In this document: positions 1 through 38,735 of the stretch, in pieces | How the letters are laid out: each line of letters starts with the position of its first letter | How positions within the stretch are numbered: the stretch's first letter is position 1 | NCBI GenBank assembly: GCA_903944345.1 | Contig: CAJARJ010000012.1 | Coordinates: 68,266 to 132,265 of the forward strand | Direction of reading: 5' to 3' | Source of the DNA: Candidatus Omnitrophota bacterium | GTDB taxonomy: Bacteria > Omnitrophota > Gorgyraeia > Zapsychrales > Fredricksoniimonadaceae | Length of the DNA: 64,000 nt | Position numbers and translations under genes: made by a program | Notes under the pieces: generated by a model | What the model was told of the DNA's origin: nothing | The model's database searches: none | The model's input: the letters and a program-made list of their open reading frames with translations, nothing else

Positions 1-118
1 TCTCGTACTCAAAGGGGCTCATGTAATCAAGTGTTGATTGAGCCCCTTTACGATTATAGAACATCTCCACATATTCAAAGATCTTGCTTCTTGTTTCTTC
101 TCTGGTCCTAAACTTGTG

Positions 119-148
119 TTTAATTAGTGACACGCAGAATTGTTTCTT
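119..148. repeat. 30-bp direct-repeat module, left copy (TTAATTAGTGACACGCAGAATTGTTTCTT). The same 30-mer with one mismatch is at 8069..8098.
   Basis: Read directly from the sequence. It contains the 18-mer GTGACACGCAGAATTGTT (128..145). Confidence 0.7.
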
Positions 149-184
149 TCTTGTATCGTATAGATACGTAAATAAATGTAATAA

Positions 185-202
185 AACAATTCTGTGTGTC
201 AC
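185..202. repeat. Inverted partner 18-mer (AACAATTCTGTGTGTCAC) of the 128..145 arm, 39 bp away.
   Basis: It is the reverse complement of GTGACACACAGAATTGTT. An identical 18-mer is at 8173..8190. Confidence 0.7.
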
Positions 203-512
203 CGATTATCTTTACCGATTATCTTTAGCCTATTTTCTTAAAACACGATTTTCTATCAAAAAACTGAAAACCGCACTACTAGAACGGAAATCCATAAAAA
301 TCTTAATCTTGCCCTCGTTAATCTATTTCCGAATCCCCCGATGCGGATTCGTGCTTCCTGATTAACTAGCTTTGGAGCTCCAATCCTTAATGAAACTTTT
401 TGCTGTATTATTGCTTCCTTTGACCAAGATAAATAATTAAAGCAGAACAAAAATGAACTGTGAGCATAGCTTCCTGAAACTTTGGAGATTTCCCTTCTTT
501 AATATGCCTACC

Positions 513-1208
513 TTATTCGCTTGCAAAAGCCCACATTTTTTCAACAGCCGTATCAACTGGTTTAGGCAAATTGCGGTCTTTAATAAAAGCGCCTAATGTC
601 CCTTTAGAACCAGAAACTTCTCTCGCAAGGCATTCAAGTGAAGCCATACTATGTTGAATAGCTCCGGTAACATCAGGTTCCGGTCTTTTTGATAAATCCT
701 CTCCTGCATGTTTTAATTCATTTAAAGCAGTGGGTCGCCCAGAATCATGTAAAAGAGATTTGGCTTCAGTTGTTATTTGCTCATAATCGCCTTCACCTCG
801 CACGGAAAGCACTCCACCTTCCATCTTCCAGCCGATGCCTTTTTTAAGAAAGAAATTATTTAACCCTTTCTCGAAGAACCTATCTGTTGCATCTTTTCGA
901 GCAAAAATTTCACAAATATCATAAACTTCAAACCATTCACAGTTATCAATCAAACCTTCACATTCATTAAGGACATTAGGATCACTCCAATTTTGAGCTT
1001 CATCCGGCAAGGAATCTAGCGCCTCACAAATAATGCTGCGCAAAGCCCTTGCATTAAATCCGCTCTTTAATGCTACGGACAATATTCCTCTTCGCAGAAA
1101 ACCTGGGGCCTCATAACGAACAGTAATGGACACTGTAGGTGCTTGATACCCATGTCTCTCTGAAAATAAAGGTTTTGTATTCATAAGGATTATGTCGCGA
1201 ATAAACAA
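513..1208 (-). CDS. Hypothetical protein (231 aa). Possible abortive-infection/defence-associated protein, but no motif recognised.
   Basis: Long ORF in the AT-rich island. It begins with a TTG start in the ORF track. It lies 6 bp downstream of a small membrane-protein gene on the same strand. Confidence 0.45.
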   Translation of the reverse strand: MFIRDIILMNTKPLFSERHGYQAPTVSITVRYEAPGFLRRGILSVALKSGFNARALRSIICEALDSLPDEAQNWSDPNVLNECEGLIDNCEWFEVYDICEIFARKDATDRFFEKGLNNFFLKKGIGWKMEGGVLSVRGEGDYEQITTEAKSLLHDSGRPTALNELKHAGEDLSKRPEPDVTGAIQHSMASLECLAREVSGSKGTLGAFIKDRNLPKPVDTAVEKMWAFASE

Positions 1209-1214
1209 TTACTT

Positions 1215-1547
1215 TTACCGCTCCTGTCCTTTCAATTTCCCAAGACCTGTATCAATCCAATCTATAATGCGATACGAATATCCGGCAATTCCGATAACTG
1301 TACCAATAGATAAAATTAAATCGACCTTATCCAATGAAGCAACCCGGAAATCTGGATTGCGAATCAAGAGAAGATATAAGCAAACCCACCCGGCTAACGA
1401 ACCTATAAACTCCGACAAAAAGATACCAGACGCCAATATTTTCTCTCCCTTCTTCCAGCTCTTTCCTTCTTCCACACAGCCATGAACACCCCAGAAAACA
1501 CTGGCAACAAGCGATATCCCCAAAAACAACCAAAAAGAAATTTGCAT
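1215..1547 (-). CDS. Small integral membrane protein (110 aa, about 3 predicted TM helices).
   Basis: Hydrophobic segments in the translation. Tightly linked upstream of the 231-aa ORF. Confidence 0.4.
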   Translation of the reverse strand: MQISFWLFLGISLVASVFWGVHGCVEEGKSWKKGEKILASGIFLSEFIGSLAGWVCLYLLLIRNPDFRVASLDKVDLILSIGTVIGIAGYSYRIIDWIDTGLGKLKGQER

Positions 1548-1710
1548 ATTATTCTCTCTTTCAGACTACCATCTTAATCCGTTTAATTGTACCCAATCCA
1601 TCGCTACGCGTTCATATTTCCAAAGATATAGGCCCTAACGCCAAATGAAGGAAAGAAATCATATTTTATCTTTCAAATTACAGTCCGAAACCTACTTTAA
1701 GTCAAATGTG

Positions 1711-2334
1711 TTAGACATTGCCAATATCTAATATCAAACGCGAACCATCCACCTCGGCTCCTATTCCGATTAAACGATCCCACCTCACGATATTGCCCTC
1801 TTTGCATTTATCTCTAAAACATTGAATCTGCTTAGCAAGATTAGAAATAGAATAAACTCGATATGTGATCCAAACCACTTCTCCTTTTGGTACAGATAAC
1901 GATCCAATAATCCGGTCATCCTCAGAACCTGGTTGTATAAAACCTGATTTTGTAATCCAAACATCCATTTCTGTTACCATATCGTCAGGCGCATTGGGTA
2001 TCCAACAAATGCCCTTCTTATGATCAACCTGATTAAGATTAACCTCAGATGATGGTGTAATAATGCGAAATGCTAATATTTCACCAGGTCTCATTTCCTT
2101 TGGGCGTTCCCAGATATCCAGATGCCTTATCTTTGACTTATCAAAAGTGTTTTCTGCGCTATCCCAATACTCTTCTGTAAATCCTATTTGCCAACTACCT
2201 GATTCATGCATACTTGCTTTCAAGGAACCTAAAGAACGACAAGTCAAATAGATATCTGGCGTTGTTTTGGACACAAAACAATTCCAAGTAGCCGCTTCAA
2301 AAGTTCCACTTTTAATGCCAAATCTTAAACACAT
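1711..2334 (-). CDS. Hypothetical protein (207 aa).
   Basis: ORF in the AT-rich island. No recognisable motif. Confidence 0.4.
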   Translation of the reverse strand: MCLRFGIKSGTFEAATWNCFVSKTTPDIYLTCRSLGSLKASMHESGSWQIGFTEEYWDSAENTFDKSKIRHLDIWERPKEMRPGEILAFRIITPSSEVNLNQVDHKKGICWIPNAPDDMVTEMDVWITKSGFIQPGSEDDRIIGSLSVPKGEVVWITYRVYSISNLAKQIQCFRDKCKEGNIVRWDRLIGIGAEVDGSRLILDIGNV

Positions 2335-2543
2335 CTTTTAGAACCCACTCTAAAGAACTTACCAATCGGACAATATTTAACAGATCAAACTTCTCTGCCC
2401 TAGAATTAAACTCAAATGAACCCATGCCAACTCCTCATCATCTAAAAACAAGATAATACTTCTTACCAATTCAATCTAATTTACCAATCTATATTAACCA
2501 AAATAAACACCTTACCAACCAATCCCACCCCTAATAAATAACT

Positions 2544-2656
2544 CCATTTTGCTTGGGGTTGTTCAAGACCCCTCCCCCTATCACAACCTATGGTTGAGGG
2601 GGTGGGGTCTTGAACGAACTGAAGAGCAAAGCGATTCAGAACCCCATGCAAAATGG
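2544..2656. repeat. Nested imperfect inverted repeat / long hairpin. Outer arms 2544..2558 and 2642..2656; inner 19-bp arms 2561..2579 and 2597..2615; side hairpin 2619..2639.
   Basis: Seen in the sequence. GTTCAAGACCCCTCCCCCT pairs with AGGGGGTGGGGTCTTGAAC. CCATTTTGCTTGGGG pairs with CCCCATGCAAAATGG. It lies in a 460-bp intergenic gap. Confidence 0.45.
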
Positions 2657-2793
2657 CAACTTAAGAAATCAAAAGATTACAGGAACATTTCCAATCTGTA
2701 ATTCAGCAGTAATAAATCTGTAATAAGAAACCCTGTAGAAAAAGCGCCAGAAGGCGCCTTCAAAGACATTAAACTAACTTCAACCTAATCTTT

Positions 2794-3522
2794 CTAAACA
2801 GGCTCATCTTTCTTTTGCGCCTTAGCCGCAGCCAACACAAACGCACAGAGGCCAACAAAAATTGCTGCCGCTAAAGCCACCAACAATAACGGACACAAAA
2901 TTCCAGCGATCACATAAAGCAAGAAAAAGAACCCGTCCTTGAGCCAATTAAAACTTTGCTGTTTGACCTTCTTGGCGACAACATCAAACCAGATATCGTT
3001 ATAAAAGTCTATCGGCATGACCTTGTAAGGCGGATTCTCAAAGCAATAAGCATCCGCCTTCTGCAATCCAGTTGCAATTAGCTCAGAACAAAAATAGGAA
3101 TCATTTACATTAAAACAATCACCCAAAAACTTCTTGTCCAACAGGAAATGCAATCCAGCTGGAAGAAAGTTGAACAACGCGAAATAGATCAACGCCCGAA
3201 AATCATACTTCTTTGATTCTTCACCTTTACAAAAAGCTACAACCTTAGCGATAGCCTGTGCATTCGCTTTTATCGGTCGCAGCGCAAGCAGATCTAATTT
3301 CTCCGTCAAATACGCTTCCTTAAAACTCCTTTTGACGATTCCTCCAGGAAATGCCTCAACAACTTGTCCATATCCGATATATAGCGCCGCATGAGTCCAA
3401 CCACGATCCCCATACCCCCTTTTGAAGAAATTGGCCGTTCTGATCGGAAGCGACCCAAGCTCAAATCCCCTGCCGCAGGTCAAAACGACATCGCCCGGTT
3501 GAAGTTTTTCTTCTAAAGACAT
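2794..3522 (-). CDS. YiiX/YaeF (DUF830) family permuted papain-like cysteine peptidase with a C-terminal TM anchor.
   Basis: Motifs GWTHAALYIG and CSELI, with a C-terminal hydrophobic helix. It lies 18 bp downstream of the His-rich ORF on the same strand. Confidence 0.5.
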   Translation of the reverse strand: MSLEEKLQPGDVVLTCGRGFELGSLPIRTANFFKRGYGDRGWTHAALYIGYGQVVEAFPGGIVKRSFKEAYLTEKLDLLALRPIKANAQAIAKVVAFCKGEESKKYDFRALIYFALFNFLPAGLHFLLDKKFLGDCFNVNDSYFCSELIATGLQKADAYCFENPPYKVMPIDFYNDIWFDVVAKKVKQQSFNWLKDGFFFLLYVIAGILCPLLLVALAAAIFVGLCAFVLAAAKAQKKDEPV

Positions 3523-3540
3523 AAATCCCCCCTCATGCCA

Positions 3541-3924
3541 TTAGGCTAAAAATACTGCCTGCTGACGATTTGCTGGCTGCTTAATTACCCAAAGACGATA
3601 CCCTTTTCCATCCGAGTCCGGCTCGCGATCTGGAAGATCTTCATGAGAAATGTATTCCCAATGCACTTCATCAAAGAAATAATGGTGCTCCCTGAAATAA
3701 TGATAAAGCAATACCGCTCGAGCAACATTATACGGTGACAAGAAATGATCAGGATGATGCTGCTTGATGTATTCAAGGTCTAAGCGAAAATGGTATTGAA
3801 AAGAATCTTCCACAATTTTCTGATGACAATTATTATCGCGATAGGAAACGAAACAAATAACATCATCCCAATCGACCCGATCCTGGCTTTGCCTTCCATA
3901 AACCTTCATACAAATCGGAACCAT
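3541..3924 (-). CDS. His-rich hypothetical protein (127 aa). Last gene of the nucleotidyltransferase operon.
   Basis: ORF starts 3 bp after the stop of the upstream nucleotidyltransferase gene. Confidence 0.4.
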   Translation of the reverse strand: MVPICMKVYGRQSQDRVDWDDVICFVSYRDNNCHQKIVEDSFQYHFRLDLEYIKQHHPDHFLSPYNVARAVLLYHYFREHHYFFDEVHWEYISHEDLPDREPDSDGKGYRLWVIKQPANRQQAVFLA

Positions 3925-3927
3925 TTG

Positions 3928-4755
3928 TTACTCCTCACTAAGCTCGCAAGGCAAAGGTAAGAATTCAGCAAACGCAGCCGCCGCTTCAGCCGCAAAGCCC
4001 TTATTCTCTAACGACTGAACACATTGAACAAAATCTTTCAATTTATGAATTAACTCGCGCTTCCTTTCGGCTTCCATGTATCCGATATCAAACCTATCAA
4101 CAAACCGATAGAAGTGAGCACATATTGATTTGGGTGATTCATCAAAAATTGATTCAGCACTCTCAACGATTTCAACCACCTTTTGTTCAATAAAGAACGA
4201 TTCAAAAAGATACCCATTCTTTGCATTCCAATATTTGATTATTCTGACCAGTGGCTTTATGAGCCCAGAAAATTTGGTGTTCACGCTGGAAAGCTTGTCA
4301 TTGAAACCTTTTGGATCTGTATCCATCCAGTCATCCCCACATAACGACTTTACTGGAATCTTCAGCCCGCCCGACCACCGAGATTTTCTTGCCGGAACCA
4401 ACTCAAAGTTAATATGATTCAACGACAATACGATTGCCGGCGCTGACTGCGCGATTTCAGATTTTGCATAGCTTGACTCGACAAAACGACGCAATCTATC
4501 TAAATACGTCTGTGGTCTATTATATGGATCAGCAAAGACTACCATTAAGTCCACATCCGAATTCTGATCGACACTACGAGGTAGAATAGTCCCTCGACTA
4601 TACGATCCAAAAATAAAGCTATCCACAATCTCTTGTCCCAAAGACGTATTTAGCCGCTCTTGTAACGTTGAAATTGATTTCTTAAGGCCGAGCTTCTCGC
4701 CATCGTCAACACCGACAAAATCGACCAATTCTAAAAGGTACCTATTTACCGACAT
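3928..4755 (-). CDS. SMODS/CD-NTase-like nucleotidyltransferase (Pol-beta superfamily), second copy in the operon.
   Basis: Motif GSYSRGTILPRSVDQNSDVDLMVVF (GS...DxD) and a downstream FELVP acidic residue. Start chosen at MSVNRYL with a GGAG ribosome-binding site; it overlaps the upstream gene's stop by 11 bp. Confidence 0.55.
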   Translation of the reverse strand: MSVNRYLLELVDFVGVDDGEKLGLKKSISTLQERLNTSLGQEIVDSFIFGSYSRGTILPRSVDQNSDVDLMVVFADPYNRPQTYLDRLRRFVESSYAKSEIAQSAPAIVLSLNHINFELVPARKSRWSGGLKIPVKSLCGDDWMDTDPKGFNDKLSSVNTKFSGLIKPLVRIIKYWNAKNGYLFESFFIEQKVVEIVESAESIFDESPKSICAHFYRFVDRFDIGYMEAERKRELIHKLKDFVQCVQSLENKGFAAEAAAAFAEFLPLPCELSEE

Positions 4756-5251
4756 GCCCCGCTCCATCCACTCCGTACTGCGATCTGCCGGAATCAATAT
4801 CAGTTTTTGCCAACTCATAATCTTTACGGCCCACCGCCAGTGCGGTCTGATTTAATTCATCTCGCATTCTGGACAATGACAATAACCGTTGCTTTGCGGC
4901 ATTAACATCTGCCTCCACCACTTCTATCTGCCTAAAAATACGTGCCGCATTTCGTAGGGCTAAATATTGTCCGCCATACGTTTTATGCTTTTCCGATCTT
5001 TCCGAAGGGCGTAAAAACGTCAACACTGTCGTTAATGCCGCCGATGCGACAGCACAGGCCACGGCCCAACTGGGAGCCTTCTGAACGACAGAAACACCAG
5101 CCAGTGCGGCAACAACAGAAGCAGGAATTCCAATTAACAAATGATACCCATTCCATCTATCTGCGGCGTTATATTGCCCCTTTGCAGAATGCTCCGAGTC
5201 TTCTTCGATTCTCTTTGCTTCCTTAATCATTTCCTGAATAATTTCAGCCAT
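4742..5251 (-). CDS. SLATT-like 2-TM protein, candidate membrane effector.
   Basis: Two central hydrophobic helices flanked by charged helices. A GGAGG ribosome-binding site sits 5 nt upstream of ATG (MAEIIQEM). Positioned between the two nucleotidyltransferase genes. Confidence 0.45.
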   Translation of the reverse strand: MAEIIQEMIKEAKRIEEDSEHSAKGQYNAADRWNGYHLLIGIPASVVAALAGVSVVQKAPSWAVACAVASAALTTVLTFLRPSERSEKHKTYGGQYLALRNAARIFRQIEVVEADVNAAKQRLLSLSRMRDELNQTALAVGRKDYELAKTDIDSGRSQYGVDGAGHVGK

Positions 5252-5268
5252 ACCGCCTCCAAAATCAA

Positions 5269-6330
5269 TCAAAACGTTTCACCGAAGATTTGCCGCCAAA
5301 GTTCAATCGCCTGATCTTGATTTCCAACCTGCTCAGCCTCAAATGCCAACCGGGCAACGCCAGCCATCTTGTTGACAATAAAACGATGGTGATCGGAAAC
5401 ATCCCCCGGAGAAACCAATGGAGCTTGATTCACAAATGACGACAAACTCCCCGAGCTTATCGCGACATTCACGGCATAGAAAGCAAAAGCAACTGCTTCC
5501 GATACTTTTGCAGCATAGTTTCCAGCGCTATTTGAATCCAGAAACCTCCTCGCTATGGCGAGCTCAACATAGTATGACTGCAACGCTCCGTTCAGCGCCT
5601 CCTTGTTCCAAAACTTGAGTATTTTAATCGCCTTCTTATATGACCGAGCATTATTCTGATGAAGCTTATTAGCAATTTCTTTATCAACTTTCGGATTGGT
5701 TCTAATCCATCCGTCCTGTCCGTCGGGTATTAAATAAAATTTCGCTTCACTTATTGCATCTGGCCGCATAAGAAAACAGGGAACGACATCAAACCCGAGA
5801 CCATCTTCGTCCTCGGTTTCGCCATGGGCCATCGCAATTCTTACGGCCTCCCCGTCAGGACGTACATCTGTTCTCGGATAATGCCTCTGAAGAACAGCAG
5901 ACAACCCACTGATCAGCTTTCTGGAAGATATGTAACTTCCGGACATCCATCGGGCAGTCAGTAAGGGATTGCTCGATAAGACACCATCTGAAACGACTGT
6001 ATAGGGAAGGCGTAATCCATCTTGAAGATAATTGAGACTGTACCCATCTAAAGGAAAATAAATATCAATATCATCAAGCGGCCATATTTTTGTGTGACGT
6101 GCAAACGATCCACCTAAAAAATCCCGATCCTGAACTGACAACACACTCGGAAAAGTTTGATCATTCTGATACTCGGATGATAAAAAATCTCTCAAATGAT
6201 TCTGGCTGTCACTAGCTTTCGACCTAATCCCATCCTCTATATTGATCTGCTTCCTCAACAACTCATCAAATGCACCGTTGACAGCGCTGCTCGCGGATTC
6301 TTTCAAAATAGCATTCAGTAATGCGCTCAT
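5269..6330 (-). CDS. SMODS/CD-NTase-like nucleotidyltransferase (Pol-beta superfamily), first copy, 353 aa.
   Basis: Motif GGSFARHTKIWPLDDIDIYF (GS...DxD) and a third acidic residue in GFDVVP. A GGAGG ribosome-binding site precedes the ATG. Confidence 0.55.
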   Translation of the reverse strand: MSALLNAILKESASSAVNGAFDELLRKQINIEDGIRSKASDSQNHLRDFLSSEYQNDQTFPSVLSVQDRDFLGGSFARHTKIWPLDDIDIYFPLDGYSLNYLQDGLRLPYTVVSDGVLSSNPLLTARWMSGSYISSRKLISGLSAVLQRHYPRTDVRPDGEAVRIAMAHGETEDEDGLGFDVVPCFLMRPDAISEAKFYLIPDGQDGWIRTNPKVDKEIANKLHQNNARSYKKAIKILKFWNKEALNGALQSYYVELAIARRFLDSNSAGNYAAKVSEAVAFAFYAVNVAISSGSLSSFVNQAPLVSPGDVSDHHRFIVNKMAGVARLAFEAEQVGNQDQAIELWRQIFGETF

Positions 6331-6334
6331 CCTT

Positions 6335-6547
6335 CTACCTCCCGTTAATCAAATCATTAAGGGAGGCCACACGCTTATGGTCCAGCAATGTATCCAAATG
6401 CATATCGGCTCGAACGCCAAGATCTACACCATACTTCTTTTCGATAGTGCCAATATGAGTATCGCCTCGCTTCGCGCGAAGCGGTCCTGCTTCAGTTCTC
6501 GATCTGCAACCTCTCATACCTGGAGCATCGTTCTTACATTTACTCAT
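6335..6547 (-). CDS. Small hypothetical protein (70 aa). First gene of the operon.
   Basis: An AGGAGG ribosome-binding site sits 6 nt upstream of ATG (MSKCKND). Its stop is 4 bp before the NTase-1 start. Confidence 0.4.
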   Translation of the reverse strand: MSKCKNDAPGMRGCRSRTEAGPLRAKRGDTHIGTIEKKYGVDLGVRADMHLDTLLDHKRVASLNDLINGR

Positions 6548-6838
6548 GGGAACCTCCTGTGTTTTTATTTGATTAAACTTGACGATTCCCATGTTGACTG
6601 GTCTAATACAGACAAAAAGGGAACAGAAGTCTCGTTTCAAGCGACCTTCCAAATTTCTCTTAAGCCCTCGGTTGCCGCCGAGGGCTTTTTCTTTCTATAA
6701 ATAATGTCTTCTGTATATCATTTCCCACCATTAGTAGTATACATCTCTTAAAGAATACCAATATATTGATTTCCTGTCAAGAATAAAAAACCACTCATAC
6801 GTGTGGCCACAAATCAATATCTTAAAAATTCCATGTTC

Positions 6839-6859
6839 TTTTACGCTTATAGCGTAAAA
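6839..6859. promoter_or_regulatory. Perfect 21-bp palindrome TTTTACGC-TTATA-GCGTAAAA, candidate operator.
   Basis: Seen in the sequence. It lies between the ImmA-like gene and the nucleotidyltransferase operon, inside its promoter region. Confidence 0.4.
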
Positions 6860-6875
6860 CGTAAATAAAAAAATA

Positions 6876-7586
6876 TTACCGCTCTCTAAGATCACGGTAA
6901 CTATCAATACCATTAAGCTGAAGTTCAAAATCATCTTCGGCAAGCGACAACAGCCCCAAGTTCTGTAAACGAATTGTAGCCGCCTGTTTTGAAACGTCGA
7001 ACAACCTCACTAAAGTGTTAACCAAAAACTCGTGATCGTTAGACTTTGATCGAATCTGCTTTACACATTGTTCAAAGATCGACCGTGGCATTAGTAAGGC
7101 TGCCGCTCCCCGATTCGCTTGCCACTCCGTATAATCACCAACCTTGGGCTGATCGTTTCCAACGTCTTCCTTAATTGTATGATTATGACAGAACAGCCTC
7201 CCCGCACCTTGAAAAAGAGGGCCATGAACTAACGCGTGAAACGACTCATGAGCACATGTAAAACGAAAACGCCCGCGCACCTGAACAGCGTTTCTTTCCT
7301 TGTATAAGCCTGCGCTTATCCTAATTAAACATGACTTGTCTTGATTAAAGACAGTCGCGCCTAAGACCCCAGACGGCAAATCAGAATCATCAGGACTGTA
7401 CTCAACGCGCTCCTTAAATAGCCGGTCGATAAAATTTCCGACATCGATGGCAGGACGATTGACATCAATCTTGCCTCCGCAAAAGCGGTAGTACCGCTCC
7501 TCCATGAAGTCATCGATATCAGCTCCCGAACAGATTAACCTCCGTCCGTAAGTAGCCTGATTGTCTGTTATCCAACGCATTGCCAT
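6876..7586 (-). CDS. ImmA/IrrE-family zinc metallopeptidase (CapP-like).
   Basis: HExxH motif (CAHESFHALVH). Immediately downstream of an XRE HTH gene. Confidence 0.6.
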   Translation of the reverse strand: MAMRWITDNQATYGRRLICSGADIDDFMEERYYRFCGGKIDVNRPAIDVGNFIDRLFKERVEYSPDDSDLPSGVLGATVFNQDKSCLIRISAGLYKERNAVQVRGRFRFTCAHESFHALVHGPLFQGAGRLFCHNHTIKEDVGNDQPKVGDYTEWQANRGAAALLMPRSIFEQCVKQIRSKSNDHEFLVNTLVRLFDVSKQAATIRLQNLGLLSLAEDDFELQLNGIDSYRDLRER

Positions 7587-7598
7587 ACTTTGCTCTCA

Positions 7599-7955
7599 TT
7601 ACTTGTCCAATTCCTTCTTTAAACGCTCAAGAACACCCGGGTCAGCTTGAGCCTTCTCTGCTATGCGACGAAACAACACCCCGACCTCTACTTCCTTGTT
7701 CACGGCATCTTCAATAATCGGGTCAACCTTGCCTGCCTTGCCCAACAGCTCTTGCACATCTAGATTCAAAACTTTCGCAAGCTGAACAACAACCTTCCCG
7801 GTTGGAGGATTGCGCCTCCCCTGCTCGATATCATTCAAATATGATACCGAAATGGCGTTTCCATCATCATTAAGTACGGCTTCGCAAACCTTGCGTAAAC
7901 TATATTCCAGCCTGAGCCGCTGTTGCTTTATATTTTGCCCAAATGTAATTACCAT
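7599..7955 (-). CDS. XRE-family helix-turn-helix transcriptional regulator (CapH-like).
   Basis: N-terminal HTH (QQRLRLEYSLRKVCEAV...SYLNDIEQGRR). Paired with the ImmA-like peptidase. Confidence 0.6.
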   Translation of the reverse strand: MVITFGQNIKQQRLRLEYSLRKVCEAVLNDDGNAISVSYLNDIEQGRRNPPTGKVVVQLAKVLNLDVQELLGKAGKVDPIIEDAVNKEVEVGVLFRRIAEKAQADPGVLERLKKELDK

Positions 7956-8068
7956 GTCCTCATAAGCATACAGCGTAACGCTGGAGTGTCAAGAAGAATA
8001 TTGGAGAACCACACTATGACTAATAAATATGGCGGGATTTTAAAACTTACGGATTATCAATATTCTAG

Positions 8069-8098
8069 TTAATTAGTGACACACAGAATTGTTTCTTG
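8069..8098. repeat. 30-bp direct-repeat module, right copy (TTAATTAGTGACACACAGAATTGTTTCTT).
   Basis: 29 of 30 positions identical to 119..148. A TTGACA hexamer sits at 8096..8101. Confidence 0.7.
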
Positions 8099-8172
8099 AC
8101 ATTCTTTACGACAATTAAACTTGTTGCACTCTGGATTTTTTCATTGCAGTAGAATGTAACAGAATGTGATAG

Positions 8173-8190
8173 AACAATTCTGTGTGTCAC
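8173..8190. repeat. Inverted partner 18-mer AACAATTCTGTGTGTCAC, 78 bp from 8077..8094.
   Basis: Identical to 185..202. Confidence 0.7.
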
Positions 8191-8201
8191 CAGTTCCTTA
8201 T

Positions 8202-8222
8202 TGGCTCCCCCGCGAGGGCTCG
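8202..8222 (-). repeat. Duplicated 3' fragment of tRNA-Asn (acceptor/T-stem 18-mer plus an encoded CCA); att-like remnant.
   Basis: CTCCCCCGCGAGGGCTCG at 8205..8222 is identical to 8411..8428, the 3' end of the tRNA-Asn gene. It is preceded by TGG (CCA on the minus strand). Confidence 0.6.
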
Positions 8223-8405
8223 TTGCCTTCCGCTCGCGCTGAAGATCTTGGAAGGGATCCTTTATCAGCGCTCGCTACAGGTCACACCCCCGGCCCGCAC
8301 TCAGACGCTCCTGTTCGTCGCGTCTAGCGGGCCTCCTTTCTCGCCCTCGCTTCCTCCGTTATATCTAATAAAAAAGCCGCCCTGAAAAGGACGGCTTTTT
8401 TATTA
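8223..8405 (+). ncRNA. Candidate small RNA / conserved tRNA-flanking element, copy A.
   Basis: Paralogous to 38530..38735. Conserved hairpin AGACGC-UCCUGUUCGUC-GCGUCU. Ends in an intrinsic terminator. Convergent with the tRNA-Asn gene. Confidence 0.3.
8371..8401. terminator. Bidirectional rho-independent terminator (A-tract, GC hairpin, T-tract).
   Basis: AAAAAAGCCGCCCTGAAAAGGACGGCTTTTTT. It lies between tRNA-Asn (minus strand) and the candidate sRNA (plus strand). Confidence 0.6.
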
Positions 8406-8448
8406 AATAACTCCCCCGCGAGGGCTCGAACCTCGGACACTGTGGTTA

Positions 8449-9002
8449 CGATCTGACTTCAATTACTTGAAGAGTCGGACTTTCTCTTCGCCATACAAAA
8501 CAAAGTATGTTTTGCTTCAGGCGGCGGGTGTAAAGTCTCTGCACTTGCCCGGCCTTTTGACTAAAGGCCTGCTAGCTCAGGATTGACCTGATCTTTATGA
8601 CCAGGCTTTTCCTGACTTAGCCCGCTTGTCACTTCCGCGTTTCCACGGAAGGCTGCTAACTTTGAGAATGAGTTTCCCGGTGACAATTCGCACACAATAT
8701 CATGCACTTATCCAACTCGACTTTAACTCTTTCCCAACTTCGGGTATACCCTTTGCTGGAGATATTAAATTCTTTAACTGTTGGATCAATGTGATGAAAC
8801 TCTAACGCATCGATACAGCGATCATATCCGCAACGCTCACATTTGCCGCCTTTATAGGCAACAGCCATTTCACGCACTTTTTTACGGCGCGCATAAACAG
8901 CTTTAATGAGATATTCACGGCGATCATTGTAAGAACGGTTATCTTTTCTCACGCTGTCTCCTGAAGACTCGACACTCGGTTTGGACCAGCCAAACCTCGT
9001 GA
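8449..9002 (-). mobile_element. Candidate group I self-splicing intron with an HNH homing-endonuclease ORF.
   Basis: Exon 1 ends in U and the intron ends in G. R-like element GCAGAGACUUUA and S-like element AAGAGAAAGUCCGA can form a GACU/AGUC P7 helix. Several hairpins lie in the 3' 250 nt. The ORF has CxxC...HH...CxxCH. Confidence 0.6.
8656..8952 (-). CDS. HNH endonuclease (about 100 aa), encoded inside the intron.
   Basis: CERCGY...EFHHIDP...CANCHRETH. A GTG start has AGGAGA 5 nt upstream. The ORF-track frame is open back into exon 1, up to 9012. Confidence 0.55.
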   Translation of the reverse strand: MRKDNRSYNDRREYLIKAVYARRKKVREMAVAYKGGKCERCGYDRCIDALEFHHIDPTVKEFNISSKGYTRSWERVKVELDKCMILCANCHRETHSQS

Positions 9003-9139
9003 ACAGCCACATGCTCTACCAACTGAGCTACAGGGGAATGAAATTTAAAAGAGCGAATGTTTGCTGCCAAAAAAATATGCGGCAAACGAAAGCGAGATGA
9101 ATTATACAGATATATTTTATCTTGTCAACCACCGAAACG

Positions 9140-38529: not shown

Positions 38530-38735
38530 CTCTCAGCGGTACGGACATCTGCCAGTCGCTCGGACAATTTTCGCTCGCCTCGTTCTTCAACTCGCTTGGT
38601 GGCAGATATCCTGCCCGCTTGCGGGCAACCACAAGGCCTTTAGGATGCTCCTGTTCGTCGCATCCAGCGGGGCTCCTCTTCGAATCCTTTCTTATAAATT
38701 AAGAAAGCCTTCCGGATTCCCGGAAGGCTTTTCAA
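38530..38735 (+). ncRNA. Candidate small RNA / conserved tRNA-flanking element, copy B.
   Basis: Shares GCTCCTGTTCGTCGC-R-TC-Y-AGCGGG with 8223..8405. The hairpin GGAUGC-loop-GCAUCC is a compensatory variant of copy A. Ends in terminator 38706..38733. Confidence 0.3.

Follow-up and report, generated by a model that had tools for sequence, protein, structure and literature searches.

A compositionally foreign anti-phage island, probably a decayed mosaic, beside an intron-split tRNA-Asn gene of a Candidatus Omnitrophota bacterium

In a 64-kb stretch of DNA from a Candidatus Omnitrophota bacterium (64,000 nucleotides of contig CAJARJ010000012.1, hereafter the window), the left 8.2 kb form an AT-rich block close to the 3' end of a recR-linked tRNA-Asn gene. 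The base composition of this block is foreign and the block is a horizontally acquired anti-phage island, the core of which is a predicted CapH/CapP-regulated operon of the cyclic-oligonucleotide-based anti-phage signalling system (CBASS). Our results indicate that the 8 kb are probably the tRNA-proximal cassette of a decayed, recombinase-less, cargo-only mosaic island at a tRNA-Asn hot spot. A compositionally foreign defence island at a tRNA gene is of an ordinary, known kind, found here in a poorly studied phylum; the Omnitrophota are uncultured and, to our knowledge, little has been published on their mobile elements. For this genome, ~84 kb were examined, comprising the window and 19.6 kb beyond its left edge.

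The AT-rich block is foreign and encodes a predicted CBASS operon

A first-pass annotation, made from the sequence letters, had judged by eye that the left 8.2 kb is AT-richer than the core genes. Indeed, window positions 1-8201 have a GC content of 41.7% versus 50.5% for 9141-64000, and the minimum elsewhere among 234 sliding 8.2-kb windows is 47.1%. GC content at third codon positions (GC3) is shifted as well, being 0.27-0.49 in the ten open reading frames (ORFs) of the island versus 0.56-0.71 in twelve neighbouring core genes. The sizeable ORFs of the island are on the minus strand without exception. Pfam and PADLOC scans also bear out the description of the block as encoding only defence-like or family-less proteins, namely CBASS, an AbiJ-like protein and four ORFs without a family. 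The features of the block are as follows, from the tRNA side to the left edge.

7992 to 7965, minus strand: promoter-like site for the capH-like gene, between palindromic module A (see below) and the gene
7599-7955, minus strand: CapH-like XRE helix-turn-helix (HTH) regulator (clear HTH_31/HTH_3 matches; weak PADLOC capH match, 0.004)
6876-7586, minus strand: CapP-like M78 (ImmA/IrrE) metallopeptidase (Pfam PF06114, 6.3e-11; PADLOC capP, 7.7e-16)
5269-6330, minus strand: cGAS/DncV-like nucleotidyltransferase (CD-NTase)/SMODS cyclase 1, 353 amino acids (aa) (PADLOC Cyclase PDLC00802, 5.3e-49)
4742-5251, minus strand: two-transmembrane (2TM, SLATT-like) CBASS effector (PADLOC Effector 2TM PDLC00712, 1.2e-61)
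3928-4755, minus strand: CD-NTase/SMODS cyclase 2 (Pfam SMODS, 8.3e-32; PADLOC Cyclase PDLC00769, 1.5e-85)
3541-3924, minus strand: 127-aa ORF, no family above threshold in the Pfam/PADLOC scans
2794-3522, minus strand: 242-aa ORF with a weakly C92 amidase-like N-terminus (sub-threshold Peptidase_C92)
1711-2334, minus strand: 207-aa ORF, no family above threshold in the Pfam/PADLOC scans
1215-1547, minus strand: 110-aa ORF, no family above threshold in the Pfam/PADLOC scans
513-1184, minus strand: AbiJ_NTD4/PDC-S32 candidate defence protein, 223 aa (Pfam PF18863, 2.8e-17; PADLOC PDC-S32, 9.8e-18)
1-118, minus strand: C-terminal remnant, ~42 aa, of an IS3-family transposase (Pfam rve_2 PF13333, 2.7e-8)

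The assignment to CBASS is based on the presence of cyclases and an effector in one operon, with an HTH/M78 gene pair upstream in fitting gene order and spacing. Reported CapH/CapP-CBASS systems have genes for an HTH repressor and an M78 peptidase directly before the cyclase-effector operon (bioRxiv 10.1101/2022.04.27.489752). The predicted system of the island has that layout, and differs in that two cyclases flank one 2TM effector and two ORFs without a family follow.

Due to the low identity (58% aa) between cyclase 1 and its nearest homologue outside this species, the donor element could not be identified. That homologue, from another Omnitrophota locus (L112, 4386-14881), is located within a type I restriction-modification operon, and its neighbours include a large serine recombinase and phage-like genes. 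When each island and flank protein was searched by tblastn against 39 related loci, only the HNH ORF of the tRNA intron described below and a distant ankyrin match were recovered, and megablast of window positions 1-9100 against all complete E. coli genomes gave zero matches, the organism not being enterobacterial. In addition, the 460-nt gap separating the 207-aa and 242-aa ORFs contains an inverted repeat at 2552-2624 (28 nt, 82% complementary, 17-nt loop) with a G/C-run core and no Rfam match. The 5' side of the IS3 remnant is truncated, the cut coinciding precisely with module B, and the remnant reaches the start of an ankyrin gene.

The adjacent tRNA-Asn gene is split by a group I intron

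The tRNA-Asn(GUU) gene beside the island occupies 8411-9037 on the minus strand as two exons around an intron. The features of this region are the following, in the direction of transcription.

9101-9128, minus strand: sigma-70-type consensus promoter, TTGACA-16-TATAAT (12/12 consensus matches), 64 nt upstream of the tRNA 5' end
9003-9037, minus strand: tRNA-Asn 5' exon, 35 nt, ending ...GGCUGU (U35 of the anticodon)
8449-9002, minus strand: group I intron, 554 nt, between anticodon positions U35 and U36, with a terminal G
8656-8952, minus strand: intron-encoded HNH endonuclease ORF, 98 aa, with a GTG start and an AGGAG ribosome-binding site, in the P1 loop
8411-8448, minus strand: tRNA-Asn 3' exon, the last 18 nt of which (8411-8428) are copy 1 of the tRNA-end repeat
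8362-8409, minus strand: terminator-like hairpin and T run right after the tRNA (inverted repeat, 22-nt arms, 91% complementary)
8223-8410, minus strand: segment X, 188 bp, between the tRNA-end copies, comprising the terminator hairpin and a GC-rich spacer
8202-8222, minus strand: copy 2 of the tRNA-Asn 3' fragment, 18 nt plus CCA (plus-strand TGG, 8202-8204), an att-like junction

ARAGORN detected no tRNA-Asn in the window, nor in its closest relatives, because the group I intron splits the anticodon. Once joined, the exons match the uninterrupted tRNA-Asn of loci L015 and L016 at 100% identity, and ARAGORN folds them as tRNA-Asn(gtt). A simple terminator scan did not list the hairpin at 8362-8409. 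The promoter, the joined exons and the following hairpin indicate that this tRNA-Asn is a real gene, and the right-hand repeat copy represents its last 18 nt.

The intron core (8456-8711, minus strand) scored 60.9 bits against Rfam RF00028, versus a gathering score of 50, and homologous introns scored 52.8-70 bits. In an alignment of 11 Omnitrophota homologues, 20 of the 34 predicted pairs of the intron helices had compensatory double changes. Moreover, the end of the 5' exon (GGCUGU) can, by eye, pair with GCAGCC just after the HNH ORF to form a P1 with U.G, and the terminal G is present in every homologous intron. The covariance score, the covarying helices and the exon and splice features all fit a group I intron, and splicing is predicted. 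The HNH ORF matched Pfam PF01844 with 22.1 bits, versus a cut-off of 21.4, and has counterparts of 66-86% aa identity in seven other Omnitrophota loci.

Among the Omnitrophota loci fetched, about half have the recR-linked tRNA-Asn split by a homologous intron of 218-618 nt, with or without an HNH ORF. An Rfam scan of the sister-species and extended loci found the intron only. In two loci (L010, 5818-6111; L014, 10680-10973), an HNH ORF with 81-86% aa identity to that of the window is located between recR and the tRNA 5' exon; since it is upstream of the tRNA and the intron of that locus is ORF-less, it is considered free-standing. We speculate that double-strand breaks, introduced by the HNH endonuclease into tRNA-Asn alleles that lack the intron, may promote co-conversion and so carry the adjacent island along from strain to strain. 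Similar to known tRNA group I introns, the intron is a small ribozyme in the anticodon loop with an optional endonuclease ORF, as with I-Ssp6803I in tRNA-fMet. In contrast, its host is tRNA-Asn(GUU) of Omnitrophota and its P1 loop encodes an HNH endonuclease. No report of a group I intron in tRNA-Asn was found in the literature searched, an outcome that does not prove the absence of such reports.

Downstream of both tRNA-Asn (8304-8337) and tRNA-Tyr (38644-38677) there is a GC-rich element of 34 nt that contains the hairpin GACGC...GCGTC, the two copies being 88% identical. GCGAGCG-rich motifs akin to it follow tRNA-Asn in the distant relatives L005, L021 and L037. This element is possibly an RNA motif linked to tRNA trailers, or else a dispersed repeat.

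A tRNA-end repeat marks the junction between tRNA and island

The 18-nt sequence CTCCCCCGCGAGGGCTCG occurs in exactly two copies, at 8205-8222 and 8411-8428, with a chance expectation of 0.03, and spans the region from the T-loop to the discriminator base. For tyrosine-integrase elements, Williams (2002) reportedly placed the crossover in the part of the tRNA gene that lies between the T-loop and its 3' end. The duplicated, CCA-bearing tRNA-Asn 3' fragment at 8202-8222 that had been pointed out in the first pass is real, the other copy of the 18 nt being part of the intron-split tRNA-Asn. The resident tRNA-Asn gene has no encoded CCA (GGGGGAG|TTATTT), and thus the left fragment is not a plain copy of it. 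The CCA of copy 2 instead matches the CCA-encoding tRNA-Asn alleles of L098 and L014-L016.

Segment X, which separates the two copies, shares 94.5% identity with the sister species described below. The first 91 nt of the segment are found again at another position of the sister array, behind a degenerate tRNA-like end. The island starts 206 bp downstream of tRNA-Asn.

Palindromic modules delimit the block

The AT-rich block is delimited not by att copies, but by two copies of an imperfect palindrome, in agreement with the earlier description of bounding repeat modules.

8065-8202, no strand assigned: module A, imperfect palindrome with arms GTGACACACAGAATTGTT at 8076-8093 and 8173-8190
119-213, no strand assigned: module B, a short variant of ~94 nt with arms at 127-144 and 185-202, the left limit of the AT-rich block

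The modules are ~130 nt long (range 94-137), have arms of 18-25 nt and contain no ORF. As a DNA hairpin, module A has a predicted energy of -26 kcal/mol (z = -5.7). This species has four copies and one solo arm, and the sister species two or three copies. Two of the full copies are located to the left of the window, after the ankyrin gene and after a Fic/TacAT pair, and are 96.8-98% identical to each other and to module A. Modules of the window and the sister species share 97% identity versus 89% for core genes, and modules adjoin tRNA-end copies in both species. The solo arm TAATTAGTGACACACAGAATT (L100, 21098-21125) is found 13.5 kb leftwards of the last full module, between a 631-aa ORF and a Mem_trans gene, with a terminator-like hairpin behind it. 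Modules B and C alone have a tandem 11-13-nt duplication at the left arm, TAAAGATAATCGG and GGAATAATCGG being each present twice (L001, 10960-10986 and 13215-13238).

Between strains of the sister species, a 4.9-kb methyltransferase cassette and one further segment have been variably lost. Both deletions end in directly repeated modules and have left a hybrid module behind. As judged from these sequences, the strain differences are products of ordinary homologous recombination between direct repeats.

An nhmmer profile found modules only in the window and the sister species, and none in the other 55 kb of the window or in ~100 other loci. An exact 24-mer module pattern gave 0 matches in metagenome contigs, and six single-arm metagenome matches of an 18-mer pattern were chance matches in unrelated DNA. 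The module was also absent from viral contigs, and blastn found none in plasmid and phage collections. No matching target-site duplications were visible by eye around single modules or module pairs in a four-copy alignment, and no transposase or recombinase with module-like ends was found in the ~84 kb and ~100 other loci examined. Three other identities for the modules were considered and rejected. As integron attC sites they would need RYYYAAC and GTTRRRY, neither of which is present at the module ends in either orientation, and no IntI was found in the window or the adjoining 19.6 kb; as the end of the neighbouring IS3 element, the module is on the wrong side, abutting the truncated 5' side of a C-terminal remnant; and the capH-like gene has a separate promoter-like site between the module and its start. 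The modules are best described as repeats resembling miniature inverted-repeat transposable elements (MITEs) that are now recombination breakpoints.

Close relatives break at the same base

RecR, DnaX, ValS and other core genes identify the host as a Candidatus Omnitrophota bacterium, with a top RecR match of 74% identity among GTDB species representatives. The window is, base for base, the reverse complement of locus L001. An identical RecR is encoded on 14 public contigs, and all those with retrievable DNA (ENA, JGI and Logan assemblies from different samples) are mutually 100% identical. An empty site was sought among the contigs with identical RecR, all of which carry the same island.

The sister species (loci L091-L097, RecR 93%) shares the conserved upstream flank PGM-AK-CimA-ValS-Tex-DnaX-RecR-tRNA, and its intron is ORF-less, without HNH. 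Window and sister DNA are 89-94% identical up to the last base of copy 2 (L001 2980, window 8205), where homology ends. The first-pass annotation had stated that the same 8 kb in related genomes would speak against an island; in the sister species the cargo is different, consisting of a Zeta toxin, a 952-aa methyltransferase, AAA_14/DUF4143, SLFN_AlbA_2, a Fic-like protein and a C92 peptidase. The sister species has four tRNA-end copies. Copy 4, at a distance of 7.5 kb from the tRNA, includes part of the T-loop (TTCGAGC...) and precedes a CCA. Together with a trailer of ~210 nt, this copy matches the uninterrupted tRNA 3' end and downstream DNA of L016 with 83% identity over 212 nt. A displaced CCA-bearing end with its trailer is the arrangement expected if integrations into the tRNA had pushed the original end away.

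In an even closer relative (RecR 97%), known from the 2-kb contig L098, the sequence follows the window species as far as the final base of copy 1, after which it reads CCATTT, like the sister trailer. Thus, three independent comparisons break on the same base, the end of GGGGGAG, which is a signature of a site-specific crossover core.

Recombinases occupy the same tRNA-Asn across the phylum

Most of the Omnitrophota loci fetched retain the order recR then tRNA-Asn(GUU). Directly at the tRNA 3' end, touching or overlapping it, L009, L010, L016, L019, L023 and L025 each have a gene for a large serine recombinase, encoded on the other strand. In L021, a tyrosine integrase gene preceded by a 20-nt tRNA-end copy is found 124 nt after the tRNA. 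The presence of recombinases there in seven relatives indicates that tRNA-Asn is a landing site for site-specific recombinase elements in the phylum. The site is instead followed by core genes (cytochrome bd, NrfA, ResB, PEP-CTERM proteins) in L006, L011, L020, L032 and L034. The 3' coding ends of five serine recombinase genes (L009, 1639-3027; L010, 6548-8029; L019, 11344-13065; L023, 8820-10490; L025, 10666-12168) overlap the last ~40 nt of tRNA-Asn, suggesting that in these elements the recombinase gene itself provides the 3' end of the tRNA.

The island probably extends beyond the left edge of the window

The 19.6 kb beyond the left edge (L001, L100) encode ankyrin, Fic and a GNAT/TacA toxin-antitoxin pair, followed by TetR-OEP-RND, MacAB and ordinary genes. 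GC3 is 0.27-0.49 in the CBASS block versus 0.56-0.65 for ankyrin, Fic and TacAT, suggesting separate origins of the cassettes. The last module is 23-55 nt from the start of the TetR-OEP-RND block (L100, 7795-13117), which has 80-86% DNA identity to L099 (319-5644) and L103 (1452-6735), where its neighbours differ. Since this conserved block begins there, the far end of the island is probably at the last module, which would give an island of ~12.5 kb from window position 8204 leftwards to ~4.3 kb beyond the edge. The closest named relatives of the TetR-OEP-RND proteins are from Elusimicrobia and Bdellovibrionota (53-64% aa), and the block may itself be mobile.

Discussion

Based on these data, the probable reading, and the one that we favour, is that of a decayed mosaic island at the recR-linked tRNA-Asn that consists of cargo only, with the 8-kb block as the cassette nearest the tRNA. 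An ancestral, CCA-encoding tRNA-Asn would have taken at least one integrative element via a crossover between the T-loop and the 3' end, and the CCA-bearing end at 8202-8222 would be the displaced original junction. A later, or tiny, insertion between tRNA and junction may have left the 188-bp segment as its remnant. The loss of recombinase genes and of the distal att copy would have come afterwards, and cassettes may have been gained, lost or swapped by homologous recombination at the MITE-like modules.

Several observations weigh against this scenario. No third tRNA-end copy is present in the rest of the 8.2 kb or over the 19.6 kb beyond the left edge, and therefore the 8 kb are not flanked by att repeats; the two existing copies bracket 188 bp only, the 8-kb block being outside the pair. 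The island joins after the CCA, 3 nt past the repeat, and the limits of the block coincide with modules; thus, we infer rather than observe its arrival by tRNA-directed integration. The full module copies all have the same orientation and are all confined to this island, unlike freely transposing MITEs. A true empty-site allele with a long flank was not recovered, L098 ending 4 nt after its CCA. Finally, Pfam and PADLOC searches of all island ORFs, precomputed Pfam matches on the flanks and tblastn with four recombinases from relatives revealed no integrase or serine recombinase, either in the 64-kb window or in the adjoining 19.6 kb on the left.

The last result agrees with the first-pass annotation as far as the window is concerned, where Pfam, PADLOC and tblastn all failed to reveal an integrase. 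That annotation had also proposed the footprint of a tRNA-targeted integrative element. What stands of this proposal is foreign and variable DNA at a tRNA hot spot with exact breakpoints; what falls is the intact element, due to the 188-bp bracket and the lacking integrase. Of its two options, an element extending leftwards or a decayed tandem-island array, the latter fits, the former having yielded ~4.3 kb of further variable DNA without a recombinase. Its expectation of a further att copy or an integrase to the left failed over 19.6 kb, so that the intact element is abandoned and only the decayed array survives.

It is also conceivable, though unlikely, that the modules themselves move the cassettes, as a MITE-pair composite transposon or integron mobilization unit, or as sites for a recombinase acting in trans, and that the tRNA-end fragment belongs to the 188-bp insertion only. 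This would explain why the AT-rich block spans exactly module A to module B, why further modules bound the ankyrin and Fic/TacAT cassettes, the last one near the conserved TetR-RND block, and why the sister strain differences end in modules. The uniform orientation of the copies, their high identity between species with more divergent core DNA and their position beside tRNA-end copies in both species point in the same direction. However, no target-site duplication is visible by eye, the arms are, by eye, without integron core sites, and no transposase or recombinase with matching ends is known from the DNA examined, the IS3 fragment being a truncated remnant. The modules have no copies in other Omnitrophota loci or in viral, metagenome, plasmid or phage collections, and homologous recombination between direct repeats fully accounts for the strain differences. 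A more specific proposal, that the modules are recombination sites or att-arm sequences of an undescribed tRNA-Asn-anchored cassette-exchange system with its recombinase in trans, appears quite improbable to us. If true, the modules would not be decaying MITEs, that recombinase would insert, excise and shuffle cargo-only defence and toxin cassettes, each ending in a module and often in a tRNA-end copy, and the system would be a functional analogue of an integron with multi-gene cassettes.

We consider it very improbable that no site-specific step was involved, i.e. that a flexible defence hot spot between conserved core genes took up foreign DNA and exchanged its content through homologous recombination in the flanks, with the tRNA-end copies as local duplications. 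The conserved upstream flank with variable content, the lack of a detected recombinase and the recurrence of the TetR-RND block beside other neighbours in relatives are compatible with this explanation. In contrast, it does not account for breakpoints on the exact last base of the 18-nt repeat in three comparisons, for the CCA-bearing tRNA end with its L016-like trailer displaced by 7.5 kb in the sister species, or for the recombinases at this tRNA in seven relatives. That the island junction is an artefact of assembly or binning, with unrelated DNA joined at a tRNA, has next to no probability. Two short contigs do stop inside the tRNA (at the 3' repeat in L086 and in the 5' exon in L089), but the ENA, JGI and Logan assemblies of different samples are 100% identical and several of their contigs, one of 159.8 kb, span the junction from tRNA to island; therefore, the locus is not an assembly artefact.

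Compared with described systems, the decayed mosaic that we favour can be placed among tRNA-anchored genomic islands and integrative elements, with which it shares adjacency to a tRNA 3' end, a repeat from T-loop to discriminator base, foreign composition, accessory or defence cargo and variable occupancy. Unlike these islands, it has no integrase and no distal repeat, and its cargo is outside the 188-bp repeat pair. In the tycheposons of Prochlorococcus, successive integrations occur at one tRNA with newer elements pushing older ones inward, and the islands contain scattered partial tRNAs and degenerated elements, with tyrosine and less often large serine recombinases (bioRxiv 10.1101/2020.12.28.424599). 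The history proposed for the present locus follows the same pattern of successive integration, in another phylum, but the locus has no integration or replication module, and palindromic modules between cassettes are not described in tycheposons.

Cis-mobilizable elements (CIMEs) form accretion arrays, as with ICESt1/3 of Streptococcus thermophilus, and a CIME keeps both att sites. The island resembles them as cargo-only DNA at an att site in a tandem array, mobilizable only by a recombinase in trans; in contrast to CIMEs, its distal att is missing and no partner element was identified. The modules in turn are similar to MITEs and integron mobilization units in their length of 94-137 nt, their 18-25-nt terminal inverted repeats, the absence of ORFs and the near-identical copies flanking cargo, but they differ from MITEs in their single orientation, their restriction to one island and the lack of a detected target-site duplication or cognate transposase. 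Integron attC arrays likewise have imperfect palindromes of ~60-140 nt between cassettes, in one orientation and with high similarity within a lineage. However, neither IntI nor an R''/R' core is found here, and the cassettes are multi-gene (up to 7.8 kb), with their own promoters and in mixed orientation.

These findings point to the recR-linked tRNA-Asn as a phylum-wide landing pad for serine- and tyrosine-recombinase elements carrying anti-phage systems, and supply a concrete 18-nt core and candidate recombinases in L016, L019, L021 and L023. Since the intron hides the tRNA from the usual tRNA finders, island-prediction pipelines based on tRNAs would miss this hot spot, and annotations would appear to be without tRNA-Asn. 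Further interest is added by the lineage-restricted palindromic modules that delimit the cassettes and by the intron-split tRNA-Asn with its HNH endonuclease.

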